Assembly (NCBI GenBank): GCA_035624455.1
Contig: DASPRM010000102.1
Coordinates: forward strand, 116-64,115
From: Terriglobales bacterium
GTDB lineage: Bacteria; Acidobacteriota; Terriglobia; Terriglobales; Acidobacteriaceae
Direction: 5' to 3'
DNA: 64,000 nt
Part shown: positions 3,806 through 57,368 of the stretch, in pieces
Numbering within the stretch: the first letter of the stretch is position 1
Layout: each line of letters opens with the position of its first letter
The notes under the pieces: model-generated
Database searches by the model: none
Told to the model about the DNA's origin: nothing
Seen by the model: the letters and a program-made list of their open reading frames with translations, nothing else
Translations under genes and position numbers: made by a program

Positions 3806-3819
3806 GGTTTTGTAGCGCG

Positions 3820-5448: not shown

Positions 5449-7119
5449 TTATGCCGATGCCGATTGCACTCCATTGGGCTCAACCGGCAATGCGATGGTG
5501 AATTTGCTTCCCTGCCCCGGTGCACTGTCCACGGAAACCTCGCCCCCATGTGCGTGCACGATGTGTCGAACCAGCGAGAGCCCCAGCCCGCTGCCCTTGG
5601 TGTTGTGAACCAGCGGATCGCCAACCCGGTAAAACTTTTCGAAAATCTTGCCCTGTTCGGTGCGCGGAATACCGATTCCGTGATCGATTACTTCCAACTT
5701 CACCGAGCCGTTTTCCCGATACAGGTTTACGCCAATATATTTCCGGTCCTGCGAATATTTCAGAGCGTTATTGACCAGGTTTACGAGCGAACGCGCCATG
5801 GCCTCGCGATCGATGCGCATTGGCGGTACCGGCTCGATCTTCTCTTCGAAGATGAAACCATTCTGCTCGATCTGGTAGCGGTACGATTCCAGTGTGTTCT
5901 TCACCAGTTCCCGCAGGTCGGTCTCGCGAAACTCGTACTCTTTGCGTCCCGCCTCGATACGTGAAAAGTCCAGGATATTGTTGATGAGGGCAGTCAGCCG
6001 TTCACTCTCCTTGCGGATAATCTGGTAATACTCCTGGTATTTCCTGGGATCCGTGAGGCGGCCCAGCTCCAGCGTTTCCGCGTACAAACGGATCAGCGAA
6101 AGCGGGGTTCTCAGCTCGTGTGAAACATTGGAAACGAAATCGGACTTCAGTCGTGCCAGGGCGATTTCCTTGCTCACATTGCGATAGGTCAGCACGACTC
6201 CTCCGGCCATCAAAAGCGACAGGCAGCCCAGAATCAGGAAGCTGGTGTGCATGAATTTTTCACTCATGGCCTTCAAGGTTGTGCCGCGCAATTTCATGCC
6301 TAGAGTGAGGCCCGGAAAAGCGGCTTCCATATTGCGTTCCGTCTCGGGCGTACCACCGTCCCATCCCGCTGTTGTCGCCAGGGGAGTGGATTCATTCTTG
6401 GGGTGCACGATCATGACCGCGGCCTTTTTCTCCCCCGATTCCACATTGCGGTTCATTTCTGCTTCCAGCGCCTCCGGGAAGAACTCATCGCGCAGATACT
6501 CGGCGTCAAACACCATGCCGGCGATCGCCTTTTCACCACTTTCTTCGTCTCGCACGAGGAACATAGGGATGGATTGATATAAATGTTTCTCGCCCCGCGG
6601 AGCCCAGTAGTATTCGGAAACGTACGGTTGAAGTTTCTCTTTCTCCTTCTTCTGCTTAGCTTCCAACTTCTTGCTGAAATCCTCAAAGTCGACTTTCAGC
6701 CAGGTGGCGAACATCTTGGTAAGGCCTTCGGACTCAGCACGAAAATCCGCTTCCTTAAGACGCCGAGGCTGAGAACGGAGCCTGATACCTCCCTGCGGGT
6801 CATAAATGAACACATGCGCGGCATACGGGTGAGAGGCCAGAATCTTGTCCAGTTTGGCTTCGCAAGTTTCGTCGGGCGCGGGAAAGTCCTCGCGCACATC
6901 ATCCGCTAAGGCGAACGCTTTTTGGTTGATGTGCTTCTCGGAAATGGCCAGCACCTCGCTGAAATCTCGCTGCAGCAGCGCCTCAATCGCGCGATCGCGC
7001 TGAATCGTCCTCAAGTGCAGCACGGCGACGACGATCAGCGCGGCTGCCGGCAATACGATGGCGAGCTCCAGCGTCAGCATCAACCGGGTTCGCTCATTCC
7101 ATCGCGGTTTCGTCTTCAT
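5449..7119 (-). CDS. Sensor histidine kinase (two TM segments, HisKA, HATPase_c)
   Basis: The H-box is VSHELRTPL. The N, G1 and G2 boxes are NLVNNALKYS, IDHGIGIP and GSGLGLSLV. The start ATG at 7119 (MKTKPRW) has GGAGAAG upstream. It lies 42 bp upstream of the response regulator. Confidence 0.9.
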   Translation of the reverse strand: MKTKPRWNERTRLMLTLELAIVLPAAALIVVAVLHLRTIQRDRAIEALLQRDFSEVLAISEKHINQKAFALADDVREDFPAPDETCEAKLDKILASHPYAAHVFIYDPQGGIRLRSQPRRLKEADFRAESEGLTKMFATWLKVDFEDFSKKLEAKQKKEKEKLQPYVSEYYWAPRGEKHLYQSIPMFLVRDEESGEKAIAGMVFDAEYLRDEFFPEALEAEMNRNVESGEKKAAVMIVHPKNESTPLATTAGWDGGTPETERNMEAAFPGLTLGMKLRGTTLKAMSEKFMHTSFLILGCLSLLMAGGVVLTYRNVSKEIALARLKSDFVSNVSHELRTPLSLIRLYAETLELGRLTDPRKYQEYYQIIRKESERLTALINNILDFSRIEAGRKEYEFRETDLRELVKNTLESYRYQIEQNGFIFEEKIEPVPPMRIDREAMARSLVNLVNNALKYSQDRKYIGVNLYRENGSVKLEVIDHGIGIPRTEQGKIFEKFYRVGDPLVHNTKGSGLGLSLVRHIVHAHGGEVSVDSAPGQGSKFTIALPVEPNGVQSASA

Positions 7120-8181: not shown

Positions 8182-9491
8182 CAGGAAACGGCTCCGTCGC
8201 TGCCAGCGGAGTCTGATTTGGAATTCTTGCGGCTCTTGTCGGAGAGATTAAAAAGGCGCCGCATGACCTCTACGACGGTAGTGGCTTCGGGCTGGCGGGC
8301 GGCGCTCTTCAGGTTGGTGATGGGCGTGTGCATGATCTTGTTGACCATGCCACGCGTCAGGGCATCGATCGCCACTTCCTGCTCGGGAGTGAGTGTGCCC
8401 AGGCGGCTGCGGAAGCGTTCGATCTCGGCTTGCCGAATATCGTCGAGATACTCCTGCAGCGAAAGGATCGTAGGCACCACATCCAGAGTGCGCAAGCGCT
8501 CACTGAAGCGCTCGACCTCCAGGGCCACGATGTCTTCCGCCTTGAGCGCCTCGCGCTTGCGGTCCGAGATGTGGCTGGAAACTACCTGCTGAAGATCGTC
8601 GATATCATAAACGAAGATTCCATCGACATCGTTGAGCGTGGGATCCACATCGCGAGGAACCGCGATATCGATAAAGAACATCGGACGGTTCCGGCGGCGA
8701 GCCATAAAGGCCTCCCCGTGCTCACGGCGGAAGATGGCGTGAGGCGCCCCGGTGGAGGTGATCACGATGTCAGCTTTGTCACAAGTATCGTACAGATCAC
8801 TGAATTGCAGCGCCTGGCCATCGAACCTGCGCGCCATCTCCAGCGCTCGTTCGTGCGTCCGGTTGACGACATAGATGGTTGCTATCCCGCTAGCCAGCAG
8901 ATGCCGGGCTGCAAGCTCGCACATCTTGCCAGCCCCCACCAGGTATACGCTCTTCCCCTTCAGGTCGCCGAATATCTTCTTAGCTAGTTCCACCGCCACG
9001 GAAGCCACGGACACGGCGGAAGAGGCAATTGCGGTCTCGTTGCGCACTTTCTTGGCAACCGCAAACGAGCGGGTGAGAAGAGCATCCAGCTGCGAGTGCA
9101 CAGCGCCGACTGCCCGGGCGATGGCATAGGCTTCCTTCACCTGGCCCAGGATTTGGGGCTCACCCACGACCATCGAATCAAGGCTGGAGGTGACGCGGAA
9201 GAGATGCTTGATAGCCTCCTTCTCACGAAATTCGTAGAGATAAGGTTCAAACTCGGCATGTGGCAGCTTGAAATAATCGGCAACAAAACCCCGCAGGTCA
9301 GCGGCGCCGTTTTGCAGCCCGGCCAGAACCTCAACCCGGTTGCAGGTAGAGAGAATTATTCCTTCTTCGACCCCGGGATAGTGCAGCAGATGTTGCAGAG
9401 CGTCCGGCAGTCGGGACTCGGAGACCGCGAAGCGTTCCCGAATCTCCACGGGCGCGCTTCGATGGTTCACTCCGATGAGCTGCACGTTCAT
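8181..9491 (-). CDS. hemA: Glutamyl-tRNA reductase
   Basis: [22 protein letters not shown] is the HemA N-terminus, and the NAD-binding [13 protein letters not shown] is present. The start is taken at the internal ATG 9491, overlapping the upstream gene's stop in ATGA; the ORF track extends further. Confidence 0.9.
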
Positions 9492-10315
9492 GGGGCCACA
9501 AACCTGTGTACTGCGCTGAAGTAATTTGCTGCCCAGGCTCCCACCGCCGCCAGGAAAGCAAACGTCGCCAAATAGGCAGCGCGACGCCCGCGCCAGCCGG
9601 AGTTCCAGCGGCTGTACAACAGCAGCATGTACACCGCCCACATCAGCAGAGAAAGAATGATTTTGGGATCATAAAAAAAGTGCGACCCAAAATTTGCTTG
9701 CGCCACCACCGATCCCGCAATTAGGCCAAACGTCATGAAGGGAAAGCCCAGCAAAAGCGACTTGTAGCCGATATCGTCGATCACCTGCAGCGCGGGCAAG
9801 CGCGAAAGCACACCATCGGCTGCCGGAGTCTTGGATTTCAGGCTCCGCTCCTGCACCAGGTAAAGAATGCTCGAGGCGAAGCTGAGTAACAGAGCAGCGT
9901 AGCCCGTAAAGATCATCGCTACGTGCACGCCGATCCAGCCGCTACGCATCAGGCGCGAAGTAAAGATCACCTGCTGCTGCCCCAGTGCGGAGGCAAAAAC
10001 TAACAGAAAAACCAGGGGAAAGACGAAAATACCGGGCGAAGTGGTGCGGTACTTGGCAAATACCACCATGAAAACCACGAGGATCAGAAAAGCGAGTAGC
10101 GATTCCGACTCGTGAATCGACATCAGAGTGAGCGAGAGATGGCCGCTGGTCATGGCGGTCTCGGTTAGCGAGACGAAATGGAACACCATGCCCATCCCGA
10201 CAAAGGGTATTACCACACGGGATAGCCAGGCGCAGGGCCGGCTTACCGCCGCCAGCGCATAGAGCAAGCCCACCGCATAGAACAGCACCGCAATTCGGAG
10301 CCAAAGCAGTGGCAT
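9488..10315 (-). CDS. Cytochrome c assembly protein family (CcsA/HemX-like) integral membrane protein upstream of hemA
   Basis: It is polytopic and hydrophobic with a W-rich CcsA-like region (WNSGW, WAANYF). It sits in the classic hemX-hemA position. Confidence 0.7.
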   Translation of the reverse strand: MPLLWLRIAVLFYAVGLLYALAAVSRPCAWLSRVVIPFVGMGMVFHFVSLTETAMTSGHLSLTLMSIHESESLLAFLILVVFMVVFAKYRTTSPGIFVFPLVFLLVFASALGQQQVIFTSRLMRSGWIGVHVAMIFTGYAALLLSFASSILYLVQERSLKSKTPAADGVLSRLPALQVIDDIGYKSLLLGFPFMTFGLIAGSVVAQANFGSHFFYDPKIILSLLMWAVYMLLLYSRWNSGWRGRRAAYLATFAFLAAVGAWAANYFSAVHRFVAP

Positions 10316-10522
10316 AGCTTAATCCCCTCGGATCAGGGGCGCTGCCCTCCTCCTGTTCTGTAGGGAAGAATGATTATAAATCCCTTGATTACGGTGCCTC
10401 AGGCCAATGGGACGGAGCAGCGGAAGAGATCACTCCGCGGGTGTGATCTGGGTCACAGGATAAATGGCCATTCCCCGTCAGCCCGTCAGTTAGCTGGCGA
10501 AGCTTGTCCGCGCCGTTATCGC

Positions 10523-10885
10523 TTAATCCACTCCCAGGCTGTTGAGGTACTCCTCGATCTCAGCGGCGCTCACGCTGAGCCGGCGTCCGTCCTGCATCAT
10601 GTTCTCAATTTCGTCGAAGCCATGAAAGAGGCGCACCTTAGCCACCGCGTACCGTTCGGTATCGGTAAGAGGGCGGCCGTGCGCGGAACTCCAGTTTTCC
10701 GCCACCTCGCCTCTAATGAAGACGCTGACTGCATAGGTAGTCTTTCGATCGGAGCTGACGTCAAATATGTACTCGGTGGCGGGCGCCTCGCTATCGCCGG
10801 AAAGAGCAGGACGCTGACCTACAAAATAGTATTGATAAACGTAGCCGGTTTCGCCAGTGTAGGTCTTTACGCGACGCAACGCCAT
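10523..10885 (-). CDS. Hypothetical protein (120 aa)
   Basis: Protein-like composition. The overlapping plus-strand ORF 10370..11089 is low-complexity and judged to be antisense noise. Confidence 0.45.
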   Translation of the reverse strand: MALRRVKTYTGETGYVYQYYFVGQRPALSGDSEAPATEYIFDVSSDRKTTYAVSVFIRGEVAENWSSAHGRPLTDTERYAVAKVRLFHGFDEIENMMQDGRRLSVSAAEIEEYLNSLGVD

Positions 10886-11005: not shown

Positions 11006-11995
11006 TTACTCCAGAGGAATTTCTCGCAGGCGTTTGGCGCAAGTCTCAGAACTCACTGGCGTGTAGTACACCTCCTTGAACGTGTATGACTTTGCCTTGT
11101 CTTTGACAACCGGAAGAATTTCGATGTGCCAGTGGTAATCGTCATCAATCGTGGTCCAGTAACGGAGAACGTCGGACCGGTGCAGTGTATTGGGCGAGGT
11201 GTGCAACACCAGGTGGAAGGCATCACTCACAGCGCGGATGCGGCTGAGCGTGCGCCTCAGCAGCGCCGCCAGATCGCGAAGATTCGAATTTCTGCTGACG
11301 CTCAGGCGTTCAAAGGAAGCCTCGTGTTGGCGGGACATAATCCAGGTTTCGAAAGGCACCCGCGGTGCATAGGGAACGCTCGCCACATAGTCACCACGGG
11401 TTTCTACGACGCGCTTGCCACTGCGTTCTTCCTGGGCTAGGATGTCGCAAAAAACGCACCGTTCCTTTTGACCGAAATATTCCTTCCCGGCGCGTAATTC
11501 ATACAGGATACGTCGGGGAACAAAGGTAGTCGCAGTGAGTTCAGAAGTCGGATGCTCGAAGTCCTGTCCGGCCGCCACACCGTAGTTCTTGTAAACCGAG
11601 ACATACTTGAAGCGTCGGTCGCGCTTGAGATCCAGGATGCGGCTGGAAATGAGCTGCAGTACCTGCTCGATTTCAGCGTCAGTGGCCTGCCAAAGCTGTT
11701 TCTTGTGGTTGGGGTTCTCCACCAGAACTTCGTGCGCGCCCACGGCTTGCATGGAATCATAGAGACCCTCGCCCCGGCGTTGCGGTTCACCTTCGATGCG
11801 AAAGATGGGCATAGGATGCACCACCGCTCTTGCCTGCCAGAGACCGCCGTCCCGTGAAGGCACGCTGGATATTACTTGCGGAGGCGCCGTCGCGTCGGGG
11901 CAGTATCGACAAATACTCTCGTCTTTAACCTGAGCCGCAGGATCGTCTCCGGTAATGACCCAGGAGCGAGTAATCGGGTCCTTGCGTAATTGCAT
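11006..11995 (-). CDS. Galactose-1-phosphate uridylyltransferase family (GalT/HIT-like) protein with non-canonical active-site residues
   Basis: GalT landmarks are CRYCP (Zn CxxC), HEVLVENPNH and YKNYGVAAG. The position of the HPHGQ nucleophile motif reads HPTSE. The start ATG at 11995 (MQLRKDPITRSWVI) matches GalT-family N-termini. Confidence 0.65.
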   Translation of the reverse strand: MQLRKDPITRSWVITGDDPAAQVKDESICRYCPDATAPPQVISSVPSRDGGLWQARAVVHPMPIFRIEGEPQRRGEGLYDSMQAVGAHEVLVENPNHKKQLWQATDAEIEQVLQLISSRILDLKRDRRFKYVSVYKNYGVAAGQDFEHPTSELTATTFVPRRILYELRAGKEYFGQKERCVFCDILAQEERSGKRVVETRGDYVASVPYAPRVPFETWIMSRQHEASFERLSVSRNSNLRDLAALLRRTLSRIRAVSDAFHLVLHTSPNTLHRSDVLRYWTTIDDDYHWHIEILPVVKDKAKSYTFKEVYYTPVSSETCAKRLREIPLE

Positions 11996-12083
11996 ATGGT
12001 AAGGAAACACTGATCGCGGCCAGGCGTCAACACAGACCGTTCCGGGATTCGCTCTGCTATAATCCGCCCAGTTTTGCGGTGAA

Positions 12084-14792
12084 ATGACCGATTTCCCCAC
12101 TCCGCAGTCTCCCCACCCGCCGCCTGCCCCCAATGAGCCAAGCACGCCCCTGATGCGACAGTACACGGCGATTAAAAAACAACATCCGAATGCCCTGTTG
12201 TTTTTCCGGCTAGGTGACTTCTATGAATTGTTTTTCGATGATGCGGTAGTCGCCTCACGAGAGCTGCAGATCACCTTAACCTCCCGTAACAAGGAAAAGG
12301 GCGTTCCCATGTGTGGCGTCCCCTATCACAGCGCCGAGGGATACATCGCCAAGCTGATCCGCAAAGGCTACAAGGTGGCAATTTGCGAGCAGACCGAGAA
12401 TCCCAAGCTGACAAAAAAGCTGGTGCGCCGCGAGGTGACCCGTGTCGTCACTCCCGGGACTGCGGATTCTTCTCTCATTTCCGAAGAAAACAACTTCTTG
12501 GCTGCCATCGCCAGTATCCAGGGAAAGAGCGGAAAGATAGTTGGCTTTGCGGCGCTGGATCTCTCCACAGGCGAGTTCCGGGCAACAGAATTTGCTGGCG
12601 AGACCGCCGAGCGCCGGATCTGGGAGGAGATGGAGCAGTTGCGCCCGCGGGAAGTACTCTACGCCTCTTCATTGCCCTTGTTTGAGGTTCGTGGAGTTTC
12701 CGCGGTTGCTGCATCCGAAATCGCTGTCCAGGGCGCTGCAACGGCTCTTCCATCGAGCGCCGCCTGGGCGCTGACTCCGCTGGAGGATTGGGTGTTCGCA
12801 CCTGATTACGCCGTGCCGCTGGTCGAAAACCATTTTGGAGTGATGTCACTGGAGGGCTTTGGTCTGGCCGCCAAGTCCTCTGCGGCTACGGCAGCGGGAG
12901 CCGTTCTCCATTATGTGCGCAGCACGCAGCGCGGATGCCTCGACCACGTTGACCGTATCGGCTTCTACGAGCGCCAGGACTGCCTGGTGCTGGATTCTGT
13001 TACCGTCCGCAACCTCGAACTGATCGAACCCCTGTTTGCCGGATCGGGGGAAGCGGTCACACTATTTCGCGCTCTCGACTCTACCCTGACTCCAATGGGC
13101 AAGCGACTGCTGCGCGCCTGGATGCTGCGCCCATCGATTGATGTGCAGGAGATCAACGCCCGCCTCGATGCGGTGGAAGAGCTAAGTTCTCGATTGATGG
13201 GCCGGGAGGAGCTGCGACGGTCGCTGGATGGCATTTTCGACATCGAGCGGCTGCTAAGCCGAGTCACGCTGGAGACCGCCAACCCGCGCGATGTGCTGGC
13301 CCTGGCAGCCTCGTTGGCAAAGATCCCTCCGGTGAAAGCGGCGCTTAGTCAGTTTGTCGCGGCTCGCCTGCGCGAGAAGCTTGAGTCGCTGGATGACCTG
13401 CAAGACTTGCGGCAGCGCATCGACCTGAGCATTGTTCCCGAGCCACCGCTGACGTTTGCCGATGGCGGTGTGATTCGGGATGGGGTAAGTACCGAGTTGG
13501 ATGAGCTGCGCGCCCTCAGTCGAAACAGTAAGCAGTACCTGGCTCAGATCGAGGAGCGCGAGCGGCGACGTACTGGCATCGCCTCCCTGAAGGTGAAGTT
13601 CAACTCCGTCTTCGGGTATTACATCGAGATTTCCAAGGCTAATCTTCACCTGGCTCCCGCGGACTACGAGCGCAAACAGACGCTGGTCAATGCCGAGCGC
13701 TTCACCACCCCCGAGCTCAAAGAGTACGAGGCCAGGATTCTGGATGCACAGGAGAAGATCGTCGAGATCGAGCGGCAAATCTTCGCAGATCTGCGGGCTG
13801 CGGTAGCCGGGCAGGCGAAGCGCATCCGGCAAAGCGCCCTGGCGCTAGCCGAGATTGATGTGCTGACCTCGATGGCGCACCTTGCCGCGCAAAGAAATTA
13901 TTGCCGGCCGCAGTTTGAAAACAACGGAGAGCTGGAGATCGTTGATGGCAGGCATCCCGTAGTCGAAATACAGGAACTCTACGGAGTAGCTGAACGATTC
14001 GTCCCCAATGACTTGTTTCTAAATACTACGACTCAAGCCATCCTGCTGCTGACTGGTCCAAACATGGGCGGCAAATCCACCTATCTGCGACAGACTGCCT
14101 TGATCGTAATCATGGCCCAGATGGGATCGTTTGTGCCGGCGAAGCGAGTGCGATTAGGCGTAGTGGATCGCATTTTCACGCGCATCGGGGCCAGCGACAA
14201 TCTTGCCCGCGGGCGCTCCACGTTCATGGTGGAGATGATGGAAACGGCGGCTATTCTCAACACCGCCACCCCAAGGTCCCTGATCCTGCTCGACGAAATT
14301 GGCCGGGGCACAGCCACCTACGACGGCCTGGCGATCGCTTGGGCGGCCGTGGAATACATTCACACGCGCACACGCGCCAAGACGCTGTTTGCCACTCACT
14401 ACCATGAACTAACGGAACTGGCGGAGAGGCTTTCGGGAGTAAAGAATTATCACGTCGGAGTAAAAGAAAGCGCAGGAGGAATCGTGTTTCTGCGCAAGGT
14501 ACAGCCTGGAGCAGCGGATAAAAGCTACGGTATCGAAGTGGCCAAATTGGCAGGGCTGCCTCACGATGTCGTAGTGCGAGCGCGGGAAGTGTTGGCCGAA
14601 CACGAAGCTGCCGAGCAACGGCTGAGCAACCATCTGGCTCACGAGGAGCAATCGCCTGAACCCATCCAGTTAACCATTTTCACGCCTCTATCGCAGAAGA
14701 TAGTGGACAGGCTGCGCGAGACAAATCTCGACCAGCTCACGCCACTGGAAGCTTTGAATCTGTTGCATGCGCTGAAAAAGCAAATCGAATAA
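12084..14792 (+). CDS. mutS: DNA mismatch repair protein MutS
   Basis: The N-terminal mismatch-binding region [30 protein letters not shown] is present. The Walker A is GPNMGGKST, with DE in [11 protein letters not shown], and the C-terminal dimerisation region is intact. The protein is 902 aa. Confidence 0.95.
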
Positions 14793-14836
14793 TCGACTGG
14801 CGCGAGCGCAAGAAAGGCCCTTCGGGACAATCCTCA

Positions 14837-15961
14837 ATGGTGCAGAAATCCTCTTTAGAGCTTCAGCAGCAGGTTGGACAGATGCTGATCATGGGATTTG
14901 ACGGGCTCGAGATGGGAGCGCGCCTGCGTACCATGCTCAGCAGCCTGCAGCCGGGTGGCGTGATCCTCTTCCGGCGAAACATTGATAGCGCAGACCAGAC
15001 CTATAGCCTCGTACAGGAGTGCCGTAAGTCCATTTCCACTCCCTCCTTTTTGTGTGTCGACCTGGAGGGTGGCGCTGTCGACCGCTTCCGCGACCTGATT
15101 GCCCCCGCACCCTCAGTAAATGAAGTAACGGCGGCGGGCAATCGGCAGTTGTTCCGCAAGCACGGTCAGCTACTCGGACGGGAATGCCGGGCGTTCGGAT
15201 TCAACACCGACTTCGCTCCCGTATTGGATCTCGGCCTGGAAGCCTCCAAGCAGGTTCTCACCACGCGTACCGTATCTGCGGATCCAAGAAAGGTCGTGGT
15301 GTACGCCCGCGAGTTGCTGAAAGGATTGAAAGATGTAGGCATCCTGGGAAGTGGAAAGCATTTTCCAGGGCTAGGCGAGGCAAGCCTGGATACGCACCAC
15401 GCCATGCCGAAGATTGTGAAGCCTTGGAAGCGCCTATGGGAGGAAGACCTCTATCCCTACCGCACGCTGGTACACGAGTTGCCATTCGTTATGGTCGCGC
15501 ACGCTGCATACCCGGGAATCACTAAGAACGGAACACCAGCTTCGATCTCCCGGAAATGGATCACCGACATTCTCCGCAAGAAAATTGGATATAAAGGGCT
15601 GATCGCTGCCGACGATCTGGAAATGGGCGGCGTGCAGGCGGCAGCCTCGATCGAGGAAGCTGCGGTCGAGACGGTGCGAGCCGGTTCAGACATCTTTTTG
15701 GTCTGCCACAAAGAAGAGCTGGTATGGCGCTGCCACGGAGCGGTGCTGAAAACCGCGGAGACGGATCGTCGCTTCCGGGAACTGGTCAGGACTGCCTCGA
15801 AGCGCATCCTGTCAGTGAAGAAACGATCGCCAGAGCTCAAAATGCGTCCACCCCGCAAGCCCGAGCAGAAGACCCTGGACCAGCTTCGTCGGGCGGTATG
15901 GGAGTTTAGCGAAGAGGTGCGCCTGGATGCCGAAGCCCCCAGGATCGCGACCCAGGTGTGA
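14837..15961 (+). CDS. nagZ: Beta-N-acetylhexosaminidase (GH3, NagZ)
   Basis: It has only a GH3 N-terminal domain (GGVILFRRN, KHFPGLG, a D-H dyad region) at 374 aa, typical of NagZ. It is adjacent to anmK. Confidence 0.85.
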   Translation: MVQKSSLELQQQVGQMLIMGFDGLEMGARLRTMLSSLQPGGVILFRRNIDSADQTYSLVQECRKSISTPSFLCVDLEGGAVDRFRDLIAPAPSVNEVTAAGNRQLFRKHGQLLGRECRAFGFNTDFAPVLDLGLEASKQVLTTRTVSADPRKVVVYARELLKGLKDVGILGSGKHFPGLGEASLDTHHAMPKIVKPWKRLWEEDLYPYRTLVHELPFVMVAHAAYPGITKNGTPASISRKWITDILRKKIGYKGLIAADDLEMGGVQAAASIEEAAVETVRAGSDIFLVCHKEELVWRCHGAVLKTAETDRRFRELVRTASKRILSVKKRSPELKMRPPRKPEQKTLDQLRRAVWEFSEEVRLDAEAPRIATQV

Positions 15962-17116: not shown

Positions 17117-18831
17117 CGCTTCGTCGGCCACATCACCGTGCCTCTGTAACCTTCAACTGTCATTCTGAGCGACGGCCGAGCCCGGGGTCCCCAGCCAACC
17201 CGCTTTTGGCTTGCTGGGGTGGTTGCAGGCCAGAGGCGAAGGACCTCGCGCTTTCCGCGTCTGGCAGCCGGTGTGTGCACGGGTGTCCCACTCAAGCCCT
17301 CTTTTGGCTTGAGTGGGAATGGGTTTCTGTCACCGCACTTCTCCTCGCCTGCTTGCTCTTGCTCTCCTGCGCCGAGCATCCCCCCTCCAACTCGCTGGTG
17401 ATGATCATCGAGAGCAGCCCGACGAATCTGGATCCAAGGGTAGGCATCGATGCGCAATCGGAACGCATTGACGAGTTACTGTTCGATGCCCTGGTGCATC
17501 GTGATGAGCATTTCGCCTTGCATCCCTGGCTGGCAAAGAGCTGGGAAATTCCCGATCCCCAGACCTACGTTTTTCACCTCCAGCGCGGCGTCACCTTTCA
17601 CGATGGGCGTCCCTTGACCGCGCGTGACGTGAAGTGGACCTTCGACTCGCTCACCAACGGCACGCTGCGCACAACCAAGACGGGCACGTTCCGTTACTTG
17701 GATCGCATCGATACCCCGGACGATGCCACCGTCATCTTCCACCTCAAGCAACCCTGGGCCAGCCTGTTGTGGAATGTTTCGAACGGCGCGATTGGGATCG
17801 TCCCCTATGGGAGTAAGGGCGAGCTGACTCAGATGCCGATTGGCTCGGGACCCTTCCGGTTTGTGCGCGCTGAACAGGATAAAGACGTCGTAATTGAGCG
17901 CAACGACCGCTACTGGGGCGAAAAGCCGAACCTGCAGCGCGTTCAATTTCTGGTAGTGCCGGACACCACCACGCGAGCGCTGGAATTGCGCAAAGGAAGT
18001 GCAGATGTGGCCCTCAACTCTCTGACCGCTGACATGGTTGCGACGATCGAGAAAAATCCGCAGCTGGAGGTAATGCGGCGTCCGGGAACTATTCTGAGTT
18101 ATCTTACGATGAATCTGCGTGATCCGATTCTGAAGGATGTGCGGGTGCGCCGTGCGCTGGCTTACGCTATCGACCGCCGTCCCATGATCCAATATATTTG
18201 GCGCGACCTGGCGCGACCAGCCAGCAGCATTCTTCCGCCAGAGTCATGGGCCTATGATCCGCAGACCGAGCAATATCCCTTCGATCCAGCGCGCGCCCGC
18301 CAGTTGCTGGATGCAGCCGGATATCGGGCGGTTAATGGCGTGCGCTTTCATCTTGCGATGAAGACTTCCACCGAGGAGAGCACCCGTCTTCTCGCAGCCG
18401 TGCTGCAACGACAATTGCGGGATGTGGGAATTGCTCTGGACATCCGCAGCTATGAATTCGCTACTTTCTTTTCCGACGTCACCAAGGGAGCTTTCCAGAT
18501 CTATTCCCTGCGATGGATTGGTGGGAACGACGATCCAGACATTTTTGAATACGTGTTTGACTCGGACCACACTCCGCCTCGAGGCGCCAATCGCAACTAC
18601 TATTCGAATCCACGCGTGGACCAGTTAATCGCGCAGGGGCGCAGTGAAGTAGACCCGACGAAACGCATTCAGGCTTACGGCGAGATCCAGCGCATCCTCG
18701 CCGAAGATCTTCCTTACATCAGTCTATGGTATTACGACAATGTGGCGGTCCATTCACCGCGCGTGACGAACGTCGAAATCAGTCCTGCCGGCAACTACGA
18801 TTTCCTGCTCCACGCCCAACTGCAGCAATAG
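17113..18831 (+). CDS. ABC transporter substrate-binding protein, family 5 (peptide/nickel-type), probable lipoprotein
   Basis: A family-5 SBP fold is recognisable from about residue 115 (LVMIIESSPTNLDPR..). A lipobox-like LLLLSC precedes it. The 5' end is ambiguous: ATG at 17113 overlaps the anmK stop in ATGA, but the next 200 bp contain two copies of a repeated hairpin element. A GTG at 17278 is the alternative. Confidence 0.75.
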   Translation: MTLRRPHHRASVTFNCHSERRPSPGSPANPLLACWGGCRPEAKDLALSASGSRCVHGCPTQALFWLEWEWVSVTALLLACLLLLSCAEHPPSNSLVMIIESSPTNLDPRVGIDAQSERIDELLFDALVHRDEHFALHPWLAKSWEIPDPQTYVFHLQRGVTFHDGRPLTARDVKWTFDSLTNGTLRTTKTGTFRYLDRIDTPDDATVIFHLKQPWASLLWNVSNGAIGIVPYGSKGELTQMPIGSGPFRFVRAEQDKDVVIERNDRYWGEKPNLQRVQFLVVPDTTTRALELRKGSADVALNSLTADMVATIEKNPQLEVMRRPGTILSYLTMNLRDPILKDVRVRRALAYAIDRRPMIQYIWRDLARPASSILPPESWAYDPQTEQYPFDPARARQLLDAAGYRAVNGVRFHLAMKTSTEESTRLLAAVLQRQLRDVGIALDIRSYEFATFFSDVTKGAFQIYSLRWIGGNDDPDIFEYVFDSDHTPPRGANRNYYSNPRVDQLIAQGRSEVDPTKRIQAYGEIQRILAEDLPYISLWYYDNVAVHSPRVTNVEISPAGNYDFLLHAQLQQ

Positions 18832-19161
18832 CCGGCCGAATGAAACACTCAAGACCTCTGCTGGCCTGAGTGGGCCATTTCGTGCGTGGCAACGGGCGTC
18901 TCGTCCGTTCAGGTCGAGGCGCAGCCTCGACAGAACAGTTTTGCAAGGCAGCGGCTCCAGCCGCAGCGTACAATTCCCTCCCAATTGTCATCCCGACCAA
19001 GCACTGGGATCGCCTGCAGGCGATCCCAGTGCGCGTTGAGAGACCTGCTTCGTCCTCCCTCTTCCGCTCTCCCGACCTTTCTTCACCCGATCTCTCGATC
19101 TTACTTCTCACCCCACGTGCTACCATCGATTGTTTGGGCTTGCAGCCACGAGGGAACCTGA

Positions 19162-22346: not shown

Positions 22347-22799
22347 ATGAGGAAGCTTGCTCTGGTTTCTGGAGTCGTGCTGCTGCTGTTTGGTCTGGTG
22401 GGAATCGCATGCGCGCAATTGCCTGAGTATTGCCTGTATACCAAGACCAAGATCAGCCCGTCGGTCGCGAACGTAAACGGCAAAGAATCATTTGACGTCA
22501 CCACTCTGACGAAAAGCGTATGCGGCTTCCCGATCTATGAAGGAGTCGCTTGCATTTACGATTCGTTCACTAGCCTGACTCAAATCGATTGTGAGGAGCT
22601 GGACGATTGGGGCAAGGCATACTTCACCGTCCACAAAGGTGAGTACGTGAACTTTTCTGGCTCCATTCCCACGCAGTACATCCAGGGTCGGTTCTTTGAT
22701 GAGGAGGACGTCGTCTGGGAAGGTGTGAAGTATTTCTTCTATCCCAGCATCACCAATCCCGGCACCCTGGTGTGCGTAGGCTGCGCCAGCGGCTTTTAA
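22347..22799 (+). CDS. Small secreted cysteine-rich protein, paralog 1 (150 aa), unknown family
   Basis: The start ATG at 22347 has GAGGAG 10 nt upstream. It has a signal peptide MRKLALVSGVVLLLFGLVGIACA and six Cys in the mature part. The C-terminus is PSITNPGTLVCVGCASGF. Confidence 0.75.
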   Translation: MRKLALVSGVVLLLFGLVGIACAQLPEYCLYTKTKISPSVANVNGKESFDVTTLTKSVCGFPIYEGVACIYDSFTSLTQIDCEELDDWGKAYFTVHKGEYVNFSGSIPTQYIQGRFFDEEDVVWEGVKYFFYPSITNPGTLVCVGCASGF

Positions 22800-22963
22800 C
22801 TAGGGCCATGTGAGAGTTGCCAGCATGCTACTACTACGAACCGTATCGGTCGGCCCAGGCGATTGGAGAAACGGACTCAACCTAGCTTCCAGCCCCCGGG
22901 CTGCCGCAGCGGAAGTTGACCTGAAACGTATTGCTTTGTGCGAAGACATCGAGGAGGGGGAAA

Positions 22964-23437
22964 ATGAAACGAGTTTGTCTGGCTATTGGAATTGTGCTCC
23001 TGCTGTTATGCCTCTCAGGAGCTGCGCTCGCGGTCGATGATGGAGTCTGCTTGTACACAAAGACCACCATCAGCCCCTCGGTCGCAAACGTAAACGGTAC
23101 TGAATCGTTTAACGTAACCACCAAAACGAAGAGCATTTGCGGTTTCCCGGTCGATGTAGGCGAGGTCTGTATATATGACTCGTTTACAAGCCTGACGCGC
23201 ATTACCTGCGATGACGTGGACGACTGGGGCAAGGCATACTTCACCGTCCACAAAGGTGAGTACGCGAACTTCTCTGGTCCCATTCCCACCCAGTATATCC
23301 AGGGGCGATATTTCGATAATGTGGAAGTCTGCGCTCTTGATGCGATCTGTGAACTCACTCCGGTGGAAGAATTCTTCTTCCCCAGCATAACCAACCCCGG
23401 CACCCTGGTGTGTGTCGGCTGTGCCAGTGGATTCTGA
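22964..23437 (+). CDS. Small secreted cysteine-rich protein, paralog 2 (157 aa), unknown family
   Basis: The start ATG at 22964 has GGAGGGGG upstream. It is about 75% identical to paralog 1 in protein sequence, with long identical DNA stretches, and shares the same C-terminal PSITNPGTLVCVGCASGF. Confidence 0.75.
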   Translation: MKRVCLAIGIVLLLLCLSGAALAVDDGVCLYTKTTISPSVANVNGTESFNVTTKTKSICGFPVDVGEVCIYDSFTSLTRITCDDVDDWGKAYFTVHKGEYANFSGPIPTQYIQGRYFDNVEVCALDAICELTPVEEFFFPSITNPGTLVCVGCASGF

Positions 23438-23452
23438 ATCTGGCCGAAACCT

Positions 23453-51686: not shown

Positions 51687-52357
51687 CCTTCGCTAAAGGC
51701 CTGACCCAGCGCGTTGACGATCTCCTGGGTAGGAATCGCGCCCTCCCGCTGCACTCGCCATTCCCCATCTTCGCTCAGGTCAACGATGGTCGAGGGCACG
51801 TGGCGCGGTGAGGGGCCGCCATCGAGAATAATCGAGAGCCGGTCTTTGAGTTGCTCGCGCACCGCTTCCGCTGTGGTGCATTCCGCTGCCCCGCTCAGAT
51901 TGGCTGAAGTAGCGGTAATAGGCAGGCCGGAAATTCGGATTACTTCTACCGGAATCGTCGCTGCCGGCACTCTCAGCGCAACATTGCCGGTATTGGCCGT
52001 GACCTTCAGCGGCAGCCGCGACGATGCTTTGACAATCAAGGTCAGCGGCCCGGGCCAGAACTTGCGCGCCAGCGCATAGAACTCTTCCGGTAGAGGACGC
52101 GTCAATTCCTCGGCCTGCTCAATGCTTTCGATGAGCAGAGAGAGCGGCTTGTGACGGCCGCGCGATTTGATTTCGTAGATGCGATCAACCGCCCGCAAAT
52201 TGAGCGGATCGGCCGCCAGTCCGTAAAACGTGTCCGTGGGCATCCCTAGCACCTCGCCCTGCCGAATCTTCTCGGCGGCATAGGCTATGAGCGAGGGTTC
52301 CGGAGCGGTCTGGTGAATCTTGATGATTTCCGCGCGCAAACCCGGTTTCCTTTCCAA
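51683..52357 (-). CDS. tsaC: L-threonylcarbamoyladenylate synthase (TsaC/YrdC/Sua5 family)
   Basis: The YrdC fold motifs PTDTFYGLAADP and KSRGRHKPLSLLI are present. It is 224 aa, a single domain. Confidence 0.85.
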   Translation of the reverse strand: MERKPGLRAEIIKIHQTAPEPSLIAYAAEKIRQGEVLGMPTDTFYGLAADPLNLRAVDRIYEIKSRGRHKPLSLLIESIEQAEELTRPLPEEFYALARKFWPGPLTLIVKASSRLPLKVTANTGNVALRVPAATIPVEVIRISGLPITATSANLSGAAECTTAEAVREQLKDRLSIILDGGPSPRHVPSTIVDLSEDGEWRVQREGAIPTQEIVNALGQAFSEG

Positions 52358-52850
52358 CCTTGTCCAGAAACGGCGAAAACTAACATATCACTCGGGTTTA
52401 GAGCAAGAGAGCATGGTGAAGATTGAGGGCACACGATACGTGAACCAGGCCTTCAGACCTGCATCAACATCCAAAAAATCGGGGCTTCAGGGCGTACGTG
52501 AGAACTGCTTTTGGGCGAGTCAAGTGGTCCCAGACATGCCAGAAATCCAGCCCCGAAGGGGCGGCAGAGCATAGCCCCGGCGTGAGCCGGGGAAATCGAA
52601 AAAAATTGTGAGTGCCATTAGGCACGACAGAGTTCTCACGCACAATCTTTCGCCCCGAAGGAAAGCAGGCGCAGTGCAGGCAAAGTGTCCCTCAGCGGCT
52701 GAAGCCCGAATTCTCCGCGGTGGAAATGCTTGGCTGAAAGCCCTGCTCCACCCACTATGTCCAATGATAAATACAGGCTAAAGCTGTTGAATCGGAAAGC
52801 TCCGACTCGCGGCGTATGATGGCCTGGTAACAGCGGCAGCACCTCCCTAC

Positions 52851-53678
52851 ATGCCAAGCTCCGAGCTAGACCGCCTGCGGAAGATCACGAGCCGCCAGAA
52901 TTCTCAGGTCAAAGAGTTGCGCCACGCCTTCCAGCAGGCGGAGACCACATCCGACGGCTATTGCGCCATCGAGGGCATCCGGCTGATCGAGGAGGCGATC
53001 CGCAGCGGCTTGCGCTTTAAGGCGGTCTTTTTTCGCCAATCAGCACACGAACAGGCGGAACGTTTGTTGCCGCAATTGTCCACTCACTTGGACACGCTGC
53101 TGCTCCCCGATGATGTTTTTGACGGTGCGGTGGACACCGAAACTCCGCAGGGCGTGGCGGCGCTTGTACGTTTACGAGATTACAAGCTGGAGCAGGTGCT
53201 GGCGCGCCCCGTTCCGTTCCTCATGGGCGCCGTTGGCATCCAGGACCCGGGGAACCTCGGTACCATCATTCGATCCTCCGAAGCTTTTGGCGCCGATGCC
53301 TTGCTGGCGGCTGAGAAAACGGTGAAACGATTTAATCCCAAGGTCATCCGGGCGTCGGCCGGATCGCTCTTTCGGCTGCCTGTTCTGGATTGGTCCGAGG
53401 AGGATTTGGGCCGCCTGCGGGAAAAATCCATCAAATTAGTCGCGACTACATCGCACAAAGGCGAGGATCTCGATGCCGTTGATCTCACCGGGCCTTTGGC
53501 TGTCTTCATCGGTGGGGAAGGAACTGGTCTCCCGCGCGCCTACATGGCTCAAATGCAGCAACTGGTGCGTATTCCCCAGTCGGAGCGCGTAGAATCGTTG
53601 AATGCCGGCGTGGCGGCGTCAATTGTGCTGTATGAGGCCGCACGACAGAGAAAGAAACTGGAGGGTGCCACATCGTAG
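52851..53678 (+). CDS. TrmH/SpoU-family RNA 2'-O-methyltransferase
   Basis: SpoU motifs are present ([40 protein letters not shown]). Confidence 0.85.
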
Positions 53679-53754
53679 CCGTTTTTTGCCTGGGGTGGAA
53701 GGTCGAGGCGGAGCCTCGACAGAATCGCCACATTTTTTGCCCGAGAACCGATGC

Positions 53755-55143
53755 ATGAGCTTGTTTCAACCAATTCCCGGTGATGCTGAAGCGGTGGATA
53801 AGACCCGGCCGCTGGCCGACCGCATGCGCCCGCGCTCGTTGGATGAATTCGTCGGTCAGCAACACCTGCTGGCTGCGGGAAAGCCGTTGCGCGTACAAAT
53901 CGAGCGCGATGATCTCGGGTCGATCCTCTTCTGGGGTCCGCCCGGTGTCGGTAAAACCAGCTTGGCGCACATCATTGCCCGCGTCACGCGCGCCGAGTTC
54001 ATCGAATTCTCGGCCGTGCTCGCAGGCATCAAGGAAATTAAGCAAGTAATGGCCGACGCTGAAAAGGCCAGGCAGTACGGAACCCGCACCATCGTTTTCA
54101 TCGACGAGATTCATCGCTTCAACAAGGCCCAGCAGGACGCCTTTCTGCCGCACGTCGAAAAAGGCAACATCCGCCTGATCGGCGCCACCACTGAAAATCC
54201 CTCATTCGAGATCATCTCTGCCCTGCTTTCGCGCTGCCGGACCTACGTGCTTCAGCCGTTAACAGAAGACGAGATCGTGCTCCTCCTGCGCCGGGCACTC
54301 GAAGATCGTGAACGTGGCCTGGGGGATTTGAACATCGAAGCTTCCGGCGAAATTCTGGCGCGTATCGCGGCTTACTCAAGTGGGGATGCTCGCGCCGCCT
54401 ACAACGTGCTGGAGGTCGCCTCGACTCTCGCCCGCAACGCAGCCGACGGCAAGCCCACCATCACCGACGAGATCGTCCAGAATGCCCTCCAGAAGCGCGT
54501 CCTGCTGTATGACAAAGCAGGGGAAGAACACTACAACCTGATTTCCGCGTTGCACAAATCGGTGCGCAACAGCGATCCGGACGCGGCCCTGTACTGGCTG
54601 GCTCGCATGCTGGAAGCGGGAGAGGATCCCCTGTACATCGCTCGTCGCGTAGTTCGCATGGCGGTGGAAGATATCGGCATGGCTGACCCGGGCGCACTAG
54701 GAATCACGGTTGCCGCACGGGACGCGGTTGATTTCATCGGTATGCCTGAAGGGGACCTCGCCCTGGCGCAAGCTGTTGTGTATCTTGCGCTGGCCCCCAA
54801 ATCCAATTCGCTTTACGAAGCCTATGCCCGGGTTCACGAAGATGTGGAACAAACGGTGGCGCAGCCAGTTCCCCTGCATCTGCGCAATGCACCGACCCCG
54901 CTGATGAAGCAGATCGGCTACGGCAAGGGATATCAGTATGCTCATGACCTGGAGGGCAAAGTAGCTGATATGCAGTGCTTGCCCGACAACCTGCGGGACC
55001 GGCAGTACTATCAGCCGTCCGACCAGGGACTCGAGAAGCGCATTCGTGAGCGCATGGAAGAGATCCGTCGCTTGCGCATGGCTGCCAGGCCATGGGGAAC
55101 ATCAGTCCGGCCGGCCACCGAAGAGCCCAAGAAACCACAATAG
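53755..55143 (+). CDS. rarA: Replication-associated recombination protein A (AAA+ ATPase RarA/MgsA)
   Basis: Walker A is GPPGVGKTS and Walker B is [11 protein letters not shown], followed by the MgsA C-terminal domains. The start is ATG at 53755. Confidence 0.9.
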
Positions 55144-55145
55144 CC

Positions 55146-55454
55146 ATGGATCGAATTGCCAGCTTGAAAGAAATCCTCTCGCAGGATCCCAACAACGCCT
55201 TTGCCCGCTACTCGCTGGCAACGGAGTACTCCGGCCGGGGTGAGATTGAGGCGGCCCTCGCCGAATTTTCTTCGCTGCTCAGGGCAAATCCTGATTACAC
55301 CAACGGCTACTTTATGGCTGCGCAGACGCTGATGAAAGCCGATCGCACCGAGGAGGCGCGTCAGATGCTCGCCGATGGCCTCTCCTGCGCTCGGCGGACC
55401 AGCAATCGCCACGCTGAATCAGAAATGCAGTCGATGTTGGACGAACTGGGATGA
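55146..55454 (+). CDS. Small tetratricopeptide-repeat protein (102 aa)
   Basis: Two or three TPR-like helices are visible (AFARYSLATEYSGRGEIEAALAEFSSLLRANPDY...). The start ATG is 3 nt after the rarA stop. Confidence 0.6.
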   Translation: MDRIASLKEILSQDPNNAFARYSLATEYSGRGEIEAALAEFSSLLRANPDYTNGYFMAAQTLMKADRTEEARQMLADGLSCARRTSNRHAESEMQSMLDELG

Positions 55455-55740
55455 TTACAGTGTCGTGAGAACTGATTTTTTCAGCCAAGTGAGAGACCCA
55501 GAAATCGCGCCCCGAAGGGGCGGCAGAGCGTAGCGCCGGCGTCACCGCTCTACCACCTCGCGTTTGACTGCTAGGTCAAAGAGAGCCAAGGACGCTAGCC
55601 CGATTGGTTAGATTGGGCTCCCGTTCCGCTCGCATACCTTGCGCTGCTCCACCCTCCTATCGAAAACCTGCATCACACGATGTTGGGATTATGCGGGTAT
55701 AATCGCCCAAGACGTGATCGGAGTGAGGTCCCCTTCCCAT

Positions 55741-57237
55741 ATGAGTTTCCCTCGGACACTTGGTGGTCTTCGCCACAGCAATTTCTGCGAAGCCCGGCTT
55801 CGCAAGCGCCGCGTAAAAGACGAACTGAGAGAGAACCTCATAGCTAGGCTCCGCGAGGAAAACACCGAGAGTGTCTTCCCAGGCATCGTCGGTTATGACG
55901 ACACGGTCGTTCCTCAGATCGTGAACGCCATTCTTTCAAAGCACAATTTCATTCTTCTCGGCCTCCGCGGCCAGGCCAAGAGCCGAATCCTGCGCGCCCT
56001 CACCGGTTTACTCGATCCCGAGATGCCATACATCGCGGGATGCGAGATCCACGACAATCCCTATGCTCCCATCTGTCGCCGTTGCCGCGAACTGGTAGAG
56101 GCGGAAGGTGACGCGACTCCCATTGACTACCTGCTCCCCGAAGCCCGTTATGTTGAAAAACTGGCCACTCCAGACGTGACCATTGCCGATTTGATTGGCG
56201 ATATCGATCCCATCAAAGCGGCTCGCGGCGGGCATGAATTAGGCAGCGAGCTTACCGTCCACTATGGGCTTCTGCCGCGTGCCAATCGCGGTATCTTCGC
56301 GATCAATGAGTTGCCTGATCTGGCGGGCAAAATTCAGGTCGGCTTGTTCAATATCATGCAGGAAGGGGACGTACAGATTAAGGGCTATCCGGTGCGCCTG
56401 CCGCTGGATGTGGCACTGGTGTTCAGTGCCAACCCGGAAGACTACACAGCTCGCGGGAAGATCATTACTCCCCTGAAAGATCGTATCGGATCCGAAATTC
56501 GCACGCACTATCCGGCCACTGTGGATGAAGGCATAGCCATCACCGCCCAGGAAGCCTGGGTTCAGCGCGACAGCTACATGCTCGAGGTGCCAAAGTTCGT
56601 GCAGGAGGTGATCGAGCGCATCGCGTTTACCGCCAGGGAAGATAAGCGTATCGACAAGCGCTCCGGGGTCAGCCAGCGCCTCCCCATCACTTGCATGGAG
56701 AACGTGATTTCCAATGCCGAGCGCCGCAGTATCCGGAATAGAGAAGAAATCGTGGTTCCCCGCATCGGGGACATCTACGCGGCCATGCCGGCCATTACCG
56801 GAAAGCTGGAGTTGGAATACGAAGGTGAGGTCAAGGGAGCCGATACTGTGGTGCGGGAGCTGATCCGAACCGCGGTGGCCAACACCTTCGACGCTTACTT
56901 CCACGGCGCAAACCTGCAGCAGGTGGTCCAATGGTTCGACTTGGGTGGATCGGTGCAAATGCAGGACACTGCCTCTGCCGCTGAAGTGCTGGATACGATC
57001 AAAAATATTCAGGGATTGATGGAGCGGTTGGCCCCGCTGGGTGTGAAACCCAAAGACCCGCCCGAGTTACAGGTTTCGGCTGCGGAATTCGTTCTTGAGG
57101 GTTTGTACGCCCACAAGCGGATCGGTCGCAGTGAAGAGCGGCTATTCACGGCGGGTGAACGGCAACCGCGCCGAACCGAGCAGGAACGGTTGCGTACCGA
57201 CGAACCGCCGTTCCGCCCGCGGCGGCCGTTCAATTAG
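55741..57237 (+). CDS. ChlI/BchI-like (Mg-chelatase subunit I family) AAA+ ATPase
   Basis: It is collinear with BchI: a Walker-A-like GLRGQAKS, a Cys-containing insert [17 protein letters not shown], then [19 protein letters not shown] (Walker B/sensor-1 region) and the [18 protein letters not shown] block. The start is ATG at 55741. Confidence 0.75.
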
Positions 57238-57368
57238 TGATGCTAGGGCGCGGGTGCCCCACGTTAGCCCTCTTTTGGCTAACCTGGGATTCAAACGGTT
57301 GGGCCGCCTGCTCTTCCGCCATTCTTAGACGGAGGGTGGGATCGTGAATCATAGAAGTCCTCCGGTAA

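Follow-up and report, generated by a model that had tools for sequence, protein, structure and literature searches.

The question raised by a window of Terriglobales DNA (the whole stretch analysed here, 64,000 nucleotides of a metagenome-assembled genome, MAG) is what two look-alike intergenic sequences, described in a first-pass annotation as an element of about 85 bp present twice, represent. Both belong to the Acido-Lenti-1 (RF01687) family of hairpin repeats, copy A being complete and copy B half decayed. As judged from its sequence and arrangement, this family is probably not a dedicated small RNA (sRNA) gene, but a dispersed palindromic repeat mobilised in trans, akin to the repetitive extragenic palindromic (REP) sequences and the bacterial interspersed mosaic elements (BIMEs). 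The stretches in which the two copies match are as follows.

52497-52583, intergenic: copy A, matching stretch
55464-55542, intergenic: copy B, matching stretch

Both lie where the annotation had placed them. A gapless repeat finder joined copies A and B in a longest block of 45 nt at 91% identity (52539-52583 versus 55498-55542) and a second block of 16 nt at 94% (52497-52512 versus 55464-55479), and in a MAFFT alignment they can be aligned end to end, with two mid-alignment gaps of 2 and 6 nt, reproducing the previously listed common blocks cgtgagaactg, caagtg, ccagaaatc and ccccgaaggggcggcagagc[a/g]tagc[c/g]ccggcgt. The 20-mer CCCCGAAGGGGCGGCAGAGC occurs in the 64 kb at just these two sites, even when three mismatches are allowed (0.02 occurrences expected), and a count of two was reached in none of 100 shuffles. 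The lengths of the copies differ by 8 nt, which breaks a common reading frame, and they do not therefore form a coding repeat. Copy B had been placed directly after a small TPR gene and starts 10 nt past the stop codon of this 102-aa gene (55146-55454). Copy A, assigned to a gene-free region of about 490 bp, is located in a spacer of 493 nt between a minus-strand Sua5/YciO/YrdC-family gene ending at 52357 and a SpoU methylase gene starting at 52851, the identities of both genes being taken from orthologues in relatives.

The Rfam comparison recommended in the annotation returned RF01687 as the sole above-threshold match in the whole window, on the minus strand of copy A (52592..52549), its 43.3 bits exceeding the 37-bit gathering cut-off of the 46-position model. 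By this score rule copy A is a member of the family and copy B is not, the latter giving a sub-gathering 24.3 bits at a relaxed threshold (55541..55508, minus strand), with most of the central hairpin P1 skipped. Copy A displays all of the modelled features. The family's 5' hairpin, which has a stem of about 8 bp, a loop of 4 nt and GCUA directly after it, corresponds in copy A to CCCCGGC-UCAC-GCCGGGG-CUA (minus strand, 7-bp stem), while in copy B the 5' arm of P1 has decayed and the loop, 3' arm and CUA remain. The 12-nt linker and the 5-bp hairpin with a 3-nt loop are found in both copies, which read CUCUGCC-GCCCC-UUC-GGGGC, and the base following this distal small hairpin is U in copy A, as in the family description, and G in copy B. 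The phylum also matches, as the family is ascribed to Acidobacteria or Lentisphaerae and the window derives from a member of the Acidobacteriota, its RarA being 100% identical to a protein that NCBI assigns to a Terriglobales MAG. Acido-Lenti-1 was defined by Weinberg et al. (2010) from 89 sequences, mostly of Lentisphaera araneosa and Koribacter versatilis, and was rated 'y' (probably) for RNA, with covariation present and without gene association (PMC2864571). It has been without an assigned function since 2010 and is listed in Rfam as type 'Gene; sRNA'.

A chance or local segmental duplication without wider meaning, with which the presence of just two copies in the 64 kb read would agree, is excluded by the expected frequency of the 20-mer, by the score of copy A above the curated threshold and by dozens of homologous units elsewhere. 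The annotation had held that a finding of just two copies without covariation would point to such a duplication; for the family the reverse clearly holds, with more than 45 strong copies elsewhere and clear covariation.

The extent and equivalence of the copies required correction. While the annotation had correctly recognised a repeat, and its hairpins ccccgaagggg and ccccggc-gtga-gccgggg are real, it overlooked the extension of copy A to 52640, the catalogued motif on the other strand and the partial nature of copy B, so that its 85-bp element in two copies is in fact one full element of 144 nt and one fragment. The parts are listed below, where R1 denotes a family model described in the following paragraphs, L005 a locus in another Terriglobia MAG, and hpA and hpB the two small hairpins.

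52497-52640, no strand assigned: copy A, the complete enclosed element of 144 nt, in which two closing arms enclose the tail and the three-hairpin unit (inverted repeat and fold)
52494-52506, no strand assigned: left closing arm GTACGTGAGAACT, 12 of 13 positions of which pair with 52631-52643
52507-52546, no strand assigned: tail between closing arm and unit, the minus strand of which holds GGACCACUUGAC, common to L005
52547-52633, minus strand: three-hairpin unit of about 93 model positions (R1, 63.3 bits, E = 5e-16, positions 1-93)
52549-52592, minus strand: RF01687 match, comprising the central hairpin P1, CUA, the linker and the distal small hairpin hpA (cmscan, 43.3 bits, E = 1.8e-6, model positions 1-46)
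52550-52562, no strand assigned: small hairpin hpA, GCCCC-GAA-GGGGC on the plus strand, contained in a 21-mer identical across several phyla
52572-52592, no strand assigned: TAG foot (52572-52574) and hairpin P1, CCCCGGC-GTGA-GCCGGGG (52575-52592), by direct reading and the Rfam match
52612-52625, no strand assigned: second small hairpin hpB, GTGCC-ATTA-GGCAC on the plus strand (fold and R1 alignment), outside the Rfam model
52631-52643, no strand assigned: right closing arm AGTTCTCACGCAC (inverted-repeat search and fold)
55464-55551, no strand assigned: copy B, partial element, with an arm homologue CGTGAGAACTG (55464-55474), tail, hpA (55509-55521), GTAG (55530-55533) and a decayed P1

Copy A ends at 52640 with AGTTCTCACG, the reverse complement of its first 10 nt (CGTGAGAACT), and the 161-nt region around it (52490-52650) folds into a closed multi-hairpin structure, with z = -6.0 (-67.6 kcal/mol) for the minus strand and z = -4.1 for the plus strand. 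On the minus strand hpB is preceded by CUCUGUCG and followed by CU, as is the case for hpA. The tail is partly conserved in the alignments, with CACTTG and CCAGAAATC kept in copy B and GGACCACT...TTGAC in the L005 copy L005-3. The spacer, hpB and the second arm are missing from copy B, which corresponds to the half next to the CGTGAGAACT-type arm; its R1 match (55506-55548, minus strand, 21.8 bits) skips 44 model positions, and an inverted-repeat search found no reverse-complement arm near it. The foot preceding P1 reads ATAG in copy A and GTAG in copy B. Further out, at 52477-52490 and 52699-52712, copy A is bracketed by another inverted repeat, AATCGGGGCTTCAG / CTGAAGCCCGAATT. It resembles the hairpins GATTCC-TCGGGGA-CTGAAG-TCCCCTC-GGAAT flanking the L005 homologue (3727-3758 and 3990-4020), and may be another small repeat family travelling with the element.

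The conserved unit of the family, at about 93 nt, is larger than both the 85 bp of the first-pass annotation and the 46 nt of the Rfam model. On the Rfam strand it is composed of CUCUGyCG, a small hairpin and CU, an unconserved spacer of 20-29 nt, a G+C-rich hairpin of 7-8 bp with a 4-nt loop, CUA, a linker of 9-12 nt, a second small hairpin and CU. A second small hairpin with identical flanks (CUCUGyCG before and CU after) regularly lies 20-29 nt upstream of the Rfam motif, as observed in exact-match 19-mer and 21-mer scans of genome and metagenome contigs, about half of the 19-mer matches in genomes being chance matches within coding sequences, and in a strict hairpin scan. Alignment of 27 hand-anchored units (alignment A3) revealed an invariant T5, C8 and G9 before hpB and confirmed the spacer of 20-29 nt. 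Model R1, built on this alignment (93 positions, 18 base pairs), gave 47 matches scoring more than 45 bits when run over the 290 kb of loci retrieved. As hpB is present in almost all loci retrieved via hpA or the Rfam model instead of the 21-mer, its presence there is an independent observation. The array periods of 69 and 74 nt reported for Lentisphaera by Weinberg et al. are equal to the 46-nt motif plus this spacer. Strong R1 matches occur in Terriglobia, Pyrinomonadaceae, Phycisphaerales, Planctomycetaceae, Pirellulales and one 'Armatimonadetes' MAG, while a search of viral and plasmid collections gave one weak viral contig match and zero plasmid matches. Aside from the larger unit and its upstream hairpin, the copies thus depart from Acido-Lenti-1 as modelled in the extra tail and closing stem of the Terriglobia members, the sub-threshold score of copy B and, as discussed below, wobble statistics that lean to the strand opposite the Rfam annotation.

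In the Terriglobia the unit and tail are enclosed by an inverted repeat of 10-17 bp, and such arms are absent from the copies in other phyla. Locus L005, recovered in the 19-mer scan, carries three Rfam-positive copies in 8 kb. One of these (3783-3927) shares the GTGAGAAC/GTTCTCAC arms of copy A, the same order of parts and a partly kept tail (GGACCACU...UUGAC), while in the other two the same core is enclosed by different arms that are still complementary, GTGAGCG/CGCTCAC and GCGGAGTG/CACTCCGC. The exact-match scans also recovered a 1.2-kb metagenome fragment (L064) identical to copy A. Such an enclosed form could suggest that copy A is a miniature inverted-repeat transposable element (MITE), moved by a DDE transposase via the terminal inverted repeats GTrCGTGAGAACT, and copy B a truncated one. 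Its 144 non-coding nucleotides fall within the 50-500 bp range of MITEs, terminal inverted repeats of 10-13 bp are found at 52494-52506 and 52631-52643, the same ends recur in the L005 genome, copy A lies in lineage-specific DNA, and IS4-family transposase genes stand beside some family members. This origin is nevertheless very unlikely. Copy A has no flanking direct repeat, homology between the window and L005 extends into the sequence immediately outside the arms, and an apparent AAAGAG repeat in L005 lies within this window-homologous sequence and hence is part of the element. The two L005 copies with other arms and the same core indicate that pairing was selected, rather than a transposase-binding sequence. 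Such arms do not occur in the other phyla, and the insertion sequences (IS) beside the copies in loci L019 and L025 carry unrelated inverted repeats.

Several further classes of repeat were compared. The ERIC/IRU, Correia and RUP families have fixed terminal repeats, and Correia and RUP elements also have target duplications. Copy A resembles these families in its 100-160 nt size class, terminal inverted repeats, intergenic location and the long closed fold it would adopt when transcribed, but here the closing arms vary by copy and it is the internal three-hairpin core that is conserved. An integron attC site can be rejected, as the arms GAGAAC...GTTCTC have pyrimidines after GTT where purines are required (RYYYAAC ... 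GTTRRRY), a cassette array and integrase gene are absent from the neighbourhood, and the Lentisphaera periods of 69-200 nt are too short for cassettes. The same applies to a CRISPR, since the spacers in the tandem arrays are themselves repeated (locus L036) and cas genes are absent, and to an intrinsic terminator, as neither copy has a terminator-like site on either strand, the hairpins being followed by CGGCAG (plus strand) and by CUGG or CGCG (minus strand).

Pairing is conserved throughout the unit. Alignment A4, derived with the model, comprises 70 distinct sequences. Standard pairs make up 96.4% of its cells, and 16 of the 18 pairs vary on both sides (136 cells), values reached by none of 500 shuffles, although the structure guided the fitting of this alignment and the search pattern partly fixed the first small hairpin; when the partner is slid by 1-3 columns, 36-68% of cells are paired. 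All three helices covary, and the covariation is almost wholly of the Watson-Crick type. Wobble cells in the 52 best R1 matches number five G.U and nine A.C on the Rfam strand, and those in the 70 unique seed sequences of Weinberg et al. eight G.U and 38 A.C, giving 13 G.U versus 47 A.C when combined. As each A.C on the Rfam strand corresponds to a G.U (or G.T) on its complement, wobble pairing leans weakly to the strand opposite the Rfam annotation, which is the plus strand of the window, and this counts against a strictly minus-strand RNA. The bases after P1 on the Rfam strand are conserved as C (98%), U (94%) and A (88%) among 48 family members.

These data bear on the classification as a trans-acting sRNA gene, by which the minus strand of copy A would give a structured RNA of about 90-150 nt, its ends joined by the closing stem, while copy B would represent a pseudogene. 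The rating by Weinberg et al., with its covariation and lack of gene association (PMC2864571), is in keeping with this, as are the stronger fold of the minus strand (z = -6.0 versus -4.1), the covariation of three helices and the closing stems that differ in sequence yet stay paired. However, the near-pure Watson-Crick covariation and the lean of wobble-compatible pairs to the opposite strand are not what such a gene would lead one to expect, and tandem arrays, inverted dimers and a copy inside an open reading frame (ORF), described below, are unlike the arrangement of an sRNA gene. In addition, a scan of 52300-55800 revealed neither a sigma-70-like promoter nor an intrinsic terminator, although it may not suit Acidobacteria, and the same sites are empty in the close relative L031 (RarA 91% identical). 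An sRNA gene is thus considered unlikely. The first-pass annotation had offered a cis-regulatory or sRNA module as one of its two explanations, which coincides with the Rfam label, but neither a discrete sRNA gene nor a gene-specific regulator finds support here.

Outside the Terriglobia most copies are organised as inverted dimers, 12 of the -,+ type and two to three of the +,- type, with the upstream small hairpins of the -,+ dimers in the centre and the CUA/TAG feet facing outward. Several tandem runs occur (loci L005, L025 and L036), and Lentisphaera has dozens of copies. A Pfam scan of 102 flanking ORFs showed unrelated housekeeping genes without mutual homology and no enriched partner family; DDE_Tnp_1 was found in three, as the sole recurring family, and IstB in one. 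Two of the DDE_Tnp_1 matches are the IS4-family transposase genes that adjoin copies in L019 and L025, and the ends of these IS are unrelated to the element. The IS4-family element in L019 (425-1838; DDE_Tnp_1, imperfect inverted repeats of 32 nt) starts at the expected P1 of the second unit in an inverted dimer and may have been inserted into the repeat, although its junctions rebuild no clean hairpin. In L066 a full three-hairpin unit (10176-10265, 81.6 bits) lies in frame within the ORF at 9297-10616, between the HD and HD_assoc domains of a phosphohydrolase. Intragenic copies of this kind have been reported for REPs.

The presence of the element varies between close relatives. The closest relative found, L031 (GCA_035319065.1), has a RarA 91% identical to that of the window and the same gene order, Sua5 (minus strand), SpoU, RarA and TPR, but a Sua5-SpoU spacer of 136 nt as opposed to 493 nt. 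The segments in which the window differs are as follows.

52460-52836, no strand assigned: lineage-specific DNA of about 360-385 nt with fuzzy ends, holding copy A (comparison with L031)
55455-55640, no strand assigned: junction segment holding copy B, in place of about 3.4 kb of L031 (comparison with L031)

Two alignments against L031 differ by about 30 nt in gap placement, so that the ends of the first segment are not fixed exactly. Between its TPR and AAA-type ATPase genes L031 contains a block of about 3.4 kb without counterpart in the window (11704-15113), which encodes an extracytoplasmic function (ECF) sigma factor, a 112-aa ORF, DUF4386, a 153-aa ORF and an SDR protein, and homology resumes about 100 nt beyond copy B, at about 55640-55655 in the window and about 15100-15113 in L031. 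Copy B thus sits at the junction of an indel, and the half that it lacks is the one towards the breakpoint. The 3.4-kb difference may be a deletion here or an insertion there. No R1 copies were found in L031-L035 and L071, including the sites in L031 that are syntenic to copies A and B. A strong copy (70.6 bits, 9860-9948) is present in L072, another member of the Terriglobales with an 80% identical RarA, at a third site just upstream of rarA. It lies between a menaquinone-biosynthesis gene and rarA, and its last hairpin recurs in front of it as a decayed, inverted copy. The unselected Terriglobales DNA, about 150 kb in all, holds three copies, each at a different place, suggesting that the repeat may be gained, duplicated and eroded over short evolutionary times.

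The position of copy B raises the alternative of a cis-acting RNA kept for the neighbouring genes, in which copy B would be a 3' hairpin block or U-less terminator for rarA-TPR and copy A a leader for the Sua5-family or SpoU gene. Copy B follows the TPR stop codon by 10 nt with a very stable G+C hairpin, copies 1 and 2 of L005 and the L072 copy are likewise found just downstream of same-strand ORFs, and REPs have been reported mostly downstream of coding regions, where they are thought to stabilise mRNA (PMC3733652). On the other hand, copy A lies between divergent genes and so ends no transcript, the flanking genes across loci share no common function, neither hairpin is followed by a T run, and L031 has the same operon without the element. 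As an explanation of its own such a role appears improbable, but it could add to a REP-like nature of the element rather than replace it: when transcribed, the element would form stable hairpins, and copy B, which by its distance of 10 nt from the TPR stop would be included in the 3' end of the rarA-TPR transcript, could protect or end this transcript as REPs do.

The arrangement of the family and its pairing statistics favour a REP-like DNA repeat over an sRNA gene. On the plus strand the central part of the unit has the layout of a REP, with nTAG directly before a G+C-rich, short-loop hairpin, and the 7-8 bp stem and 4-nt loop of P1 in most units fall within the REP ranges of 6-13 bp and 2-4 nt. 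On this strand, opposite to that of Rfam, the TAG of the foot is conserved at 88-98% per base. Across the loci of the family, the element shares further features with the REP/BIME/REPIN systems that are associated with RAYT (REP-associated tyrosine transposase) proteins (Nunvar 2010; Bertels and Rainey 2011; Di Nocera 2013, PMC3733652), in that it is extragenic and multi-copy, is found singly, in tandem clusters and in inverted dimers whose spacers are conserved, shows compensatory stem variants and occasional in-frame intragenic copies, and has IS elements beside or inside it. GTAG REPs are found in R. baltica and G. uraniireducens (PMC3733652), both of which are among the hosts of the Acido-Lenti-1 seeds. 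The element differs from these systems in its nTAG foot, with G in 25%, in two extra small hairpins with their own conserved linker, in one 21-nt module that is identical across phyla, and in that a RAYT gene flanked by the repeats (a REPtron) was not found in 0.49 Mb. The repeat would probably be propagated as folded single-stranded DNA, with an enzyme that recognises hairpins, for example a RAYT-type Y1/HUH transposase, acting in trans.

Several observations weigh against the REP-like nature of the family. GTAG REPs have an unpaired GTAG (or GYAG/GTRG) foot in more than 90% of members, whereas the first base here is A in 46%, T in 25%, G in 25% and C in 4%. The 21-mer GCTCTGCCGCCCCTTCGGGGC is identical in all strong-match groups across phyla, unlike the species-specific sequences of classical REPs. 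Two copies, both singlets, were counted in the 64 kb of this genome that was read. No RAYT/Y1 gene tied to the element was found in the 0.49 Mb of element-bearing loci, by tblastn with E. coli RayT and two motif scans. Neither a target-site duplication nor a clean empty site is readable in L031, the spacers of which are too diverged. The wobble asymmetry comes largely from related Lentisphaera copies and may reflect few events. With respect to the other proposal of the first-pass annotation, a mobile or repetitive extragenic element, the repetitive part is supported by a multi-copy intergenic family in multiple genomes and by two sites that are empty in the closest relative, while mobility and its agent are putative.

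One Y1_Tnp ORF was retrieved by tblastn, in L066 (6577-6912), with 23.7 bits against a cut-off of 23, and is IS200-like or RAYT-like. It lies between its own 26-nt inverted repeats GGACGCACGGGCGTCCTCGCCCGTGC (6440-6945), which are unrelated to the element, and resembles the 'TIRYT' (Y1 transposases with flanking terminal inverted repeats) of Di Nocera et al. (PMC3733652). A parallel is offered by the hairpins flanking the class 3 TnpA-Y1 genes described by Quentin et al. (2018), who reported 'several atypical secondary structures' beside this gene and high copy numbers, with about 600 in Solibacter usitatus (PMC6006769). They share the same unusual hosts, namely Planctomycetes, Acidobacteria and some Proteobacteria, but their 5' CnGA foot, compared by description, does not obviously fit either strand of the element. 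A motif scan of the 0.49 Mb of loci detected no class-3-like TnpA-Y1 ORF, and the link between the element and class 3 TnpA-Y1 is a lead only. The TIRYT genes of Koribacter, at positions which we roughly estimate from gene numbers, presumably do not coincide with the Koribacter copies of Weinberg et al. It is conceivable, if doubtful, that Acido-Lenti-1 is the DNA repeat of an undescribed REPtron-like system of Acidobacteriota, Planctomycetota, Lentisphaerota and others, in which the unit would be read on the strand opposite to that of Rfam and the 21-nt module GCUCUGCCG-CCCCUUCGGGG-C would be the recognition site of a conserved, horizontally shared enzyme. Class 3 TnpA-Y1 would be the obvious candidate for this enzyme because of its same odd host range.

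The window contains other repeats. Intergenic hairpin repeats of about 42 nt that belong to another, unrelated family (GGGTGTCCCACTCAAGCCCTCTTTTGGCTTGAGTGGGA) are present at 17179-17220, 17277-17318, 18834-18875 and 57248-57289, and weakly at 53659-53700; this family has no Rfam match at gathering threshold in the window scan. A 25-nt hairpin, AGGTCGAGGCG(C/G)AGCCTCGACAGAA, occurs with 96% identity at 18911-18935 and 53700-53724, the second site falling within the short gap that separates rarA from the SpoU methylase gene. The adjacent regions 22431-22807 and 23048-23445 share stretches of 282 and 83 nt that are 78% identical and lie about 620-640 nt apart, and are probably tandem paralogous genes.

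For the window itself, the outcome is that a repeat on record since 2010 gains two further copies, which are real but fairly ordinary. What is added here is a larger consensus unit, of which the Rfam model seems to cover half, the enclosed 144-nt form of the Terriglobia and evidence of turnover. The presence or absence of the repeat between MAGs with 91% identical RarA proteins, together with the location of copy B at an indel junction, makes it a possible marker of recent rearrangement. Should the link to a Y1/HUH enzyme hold true, REP-type systems would extend to the Acidobacteriota and the Planctomycetes-Verrucomicrobia-Chlamydiae (PVC) group with a more complex repeat architecture, and an orphan Rfam family would be explained.

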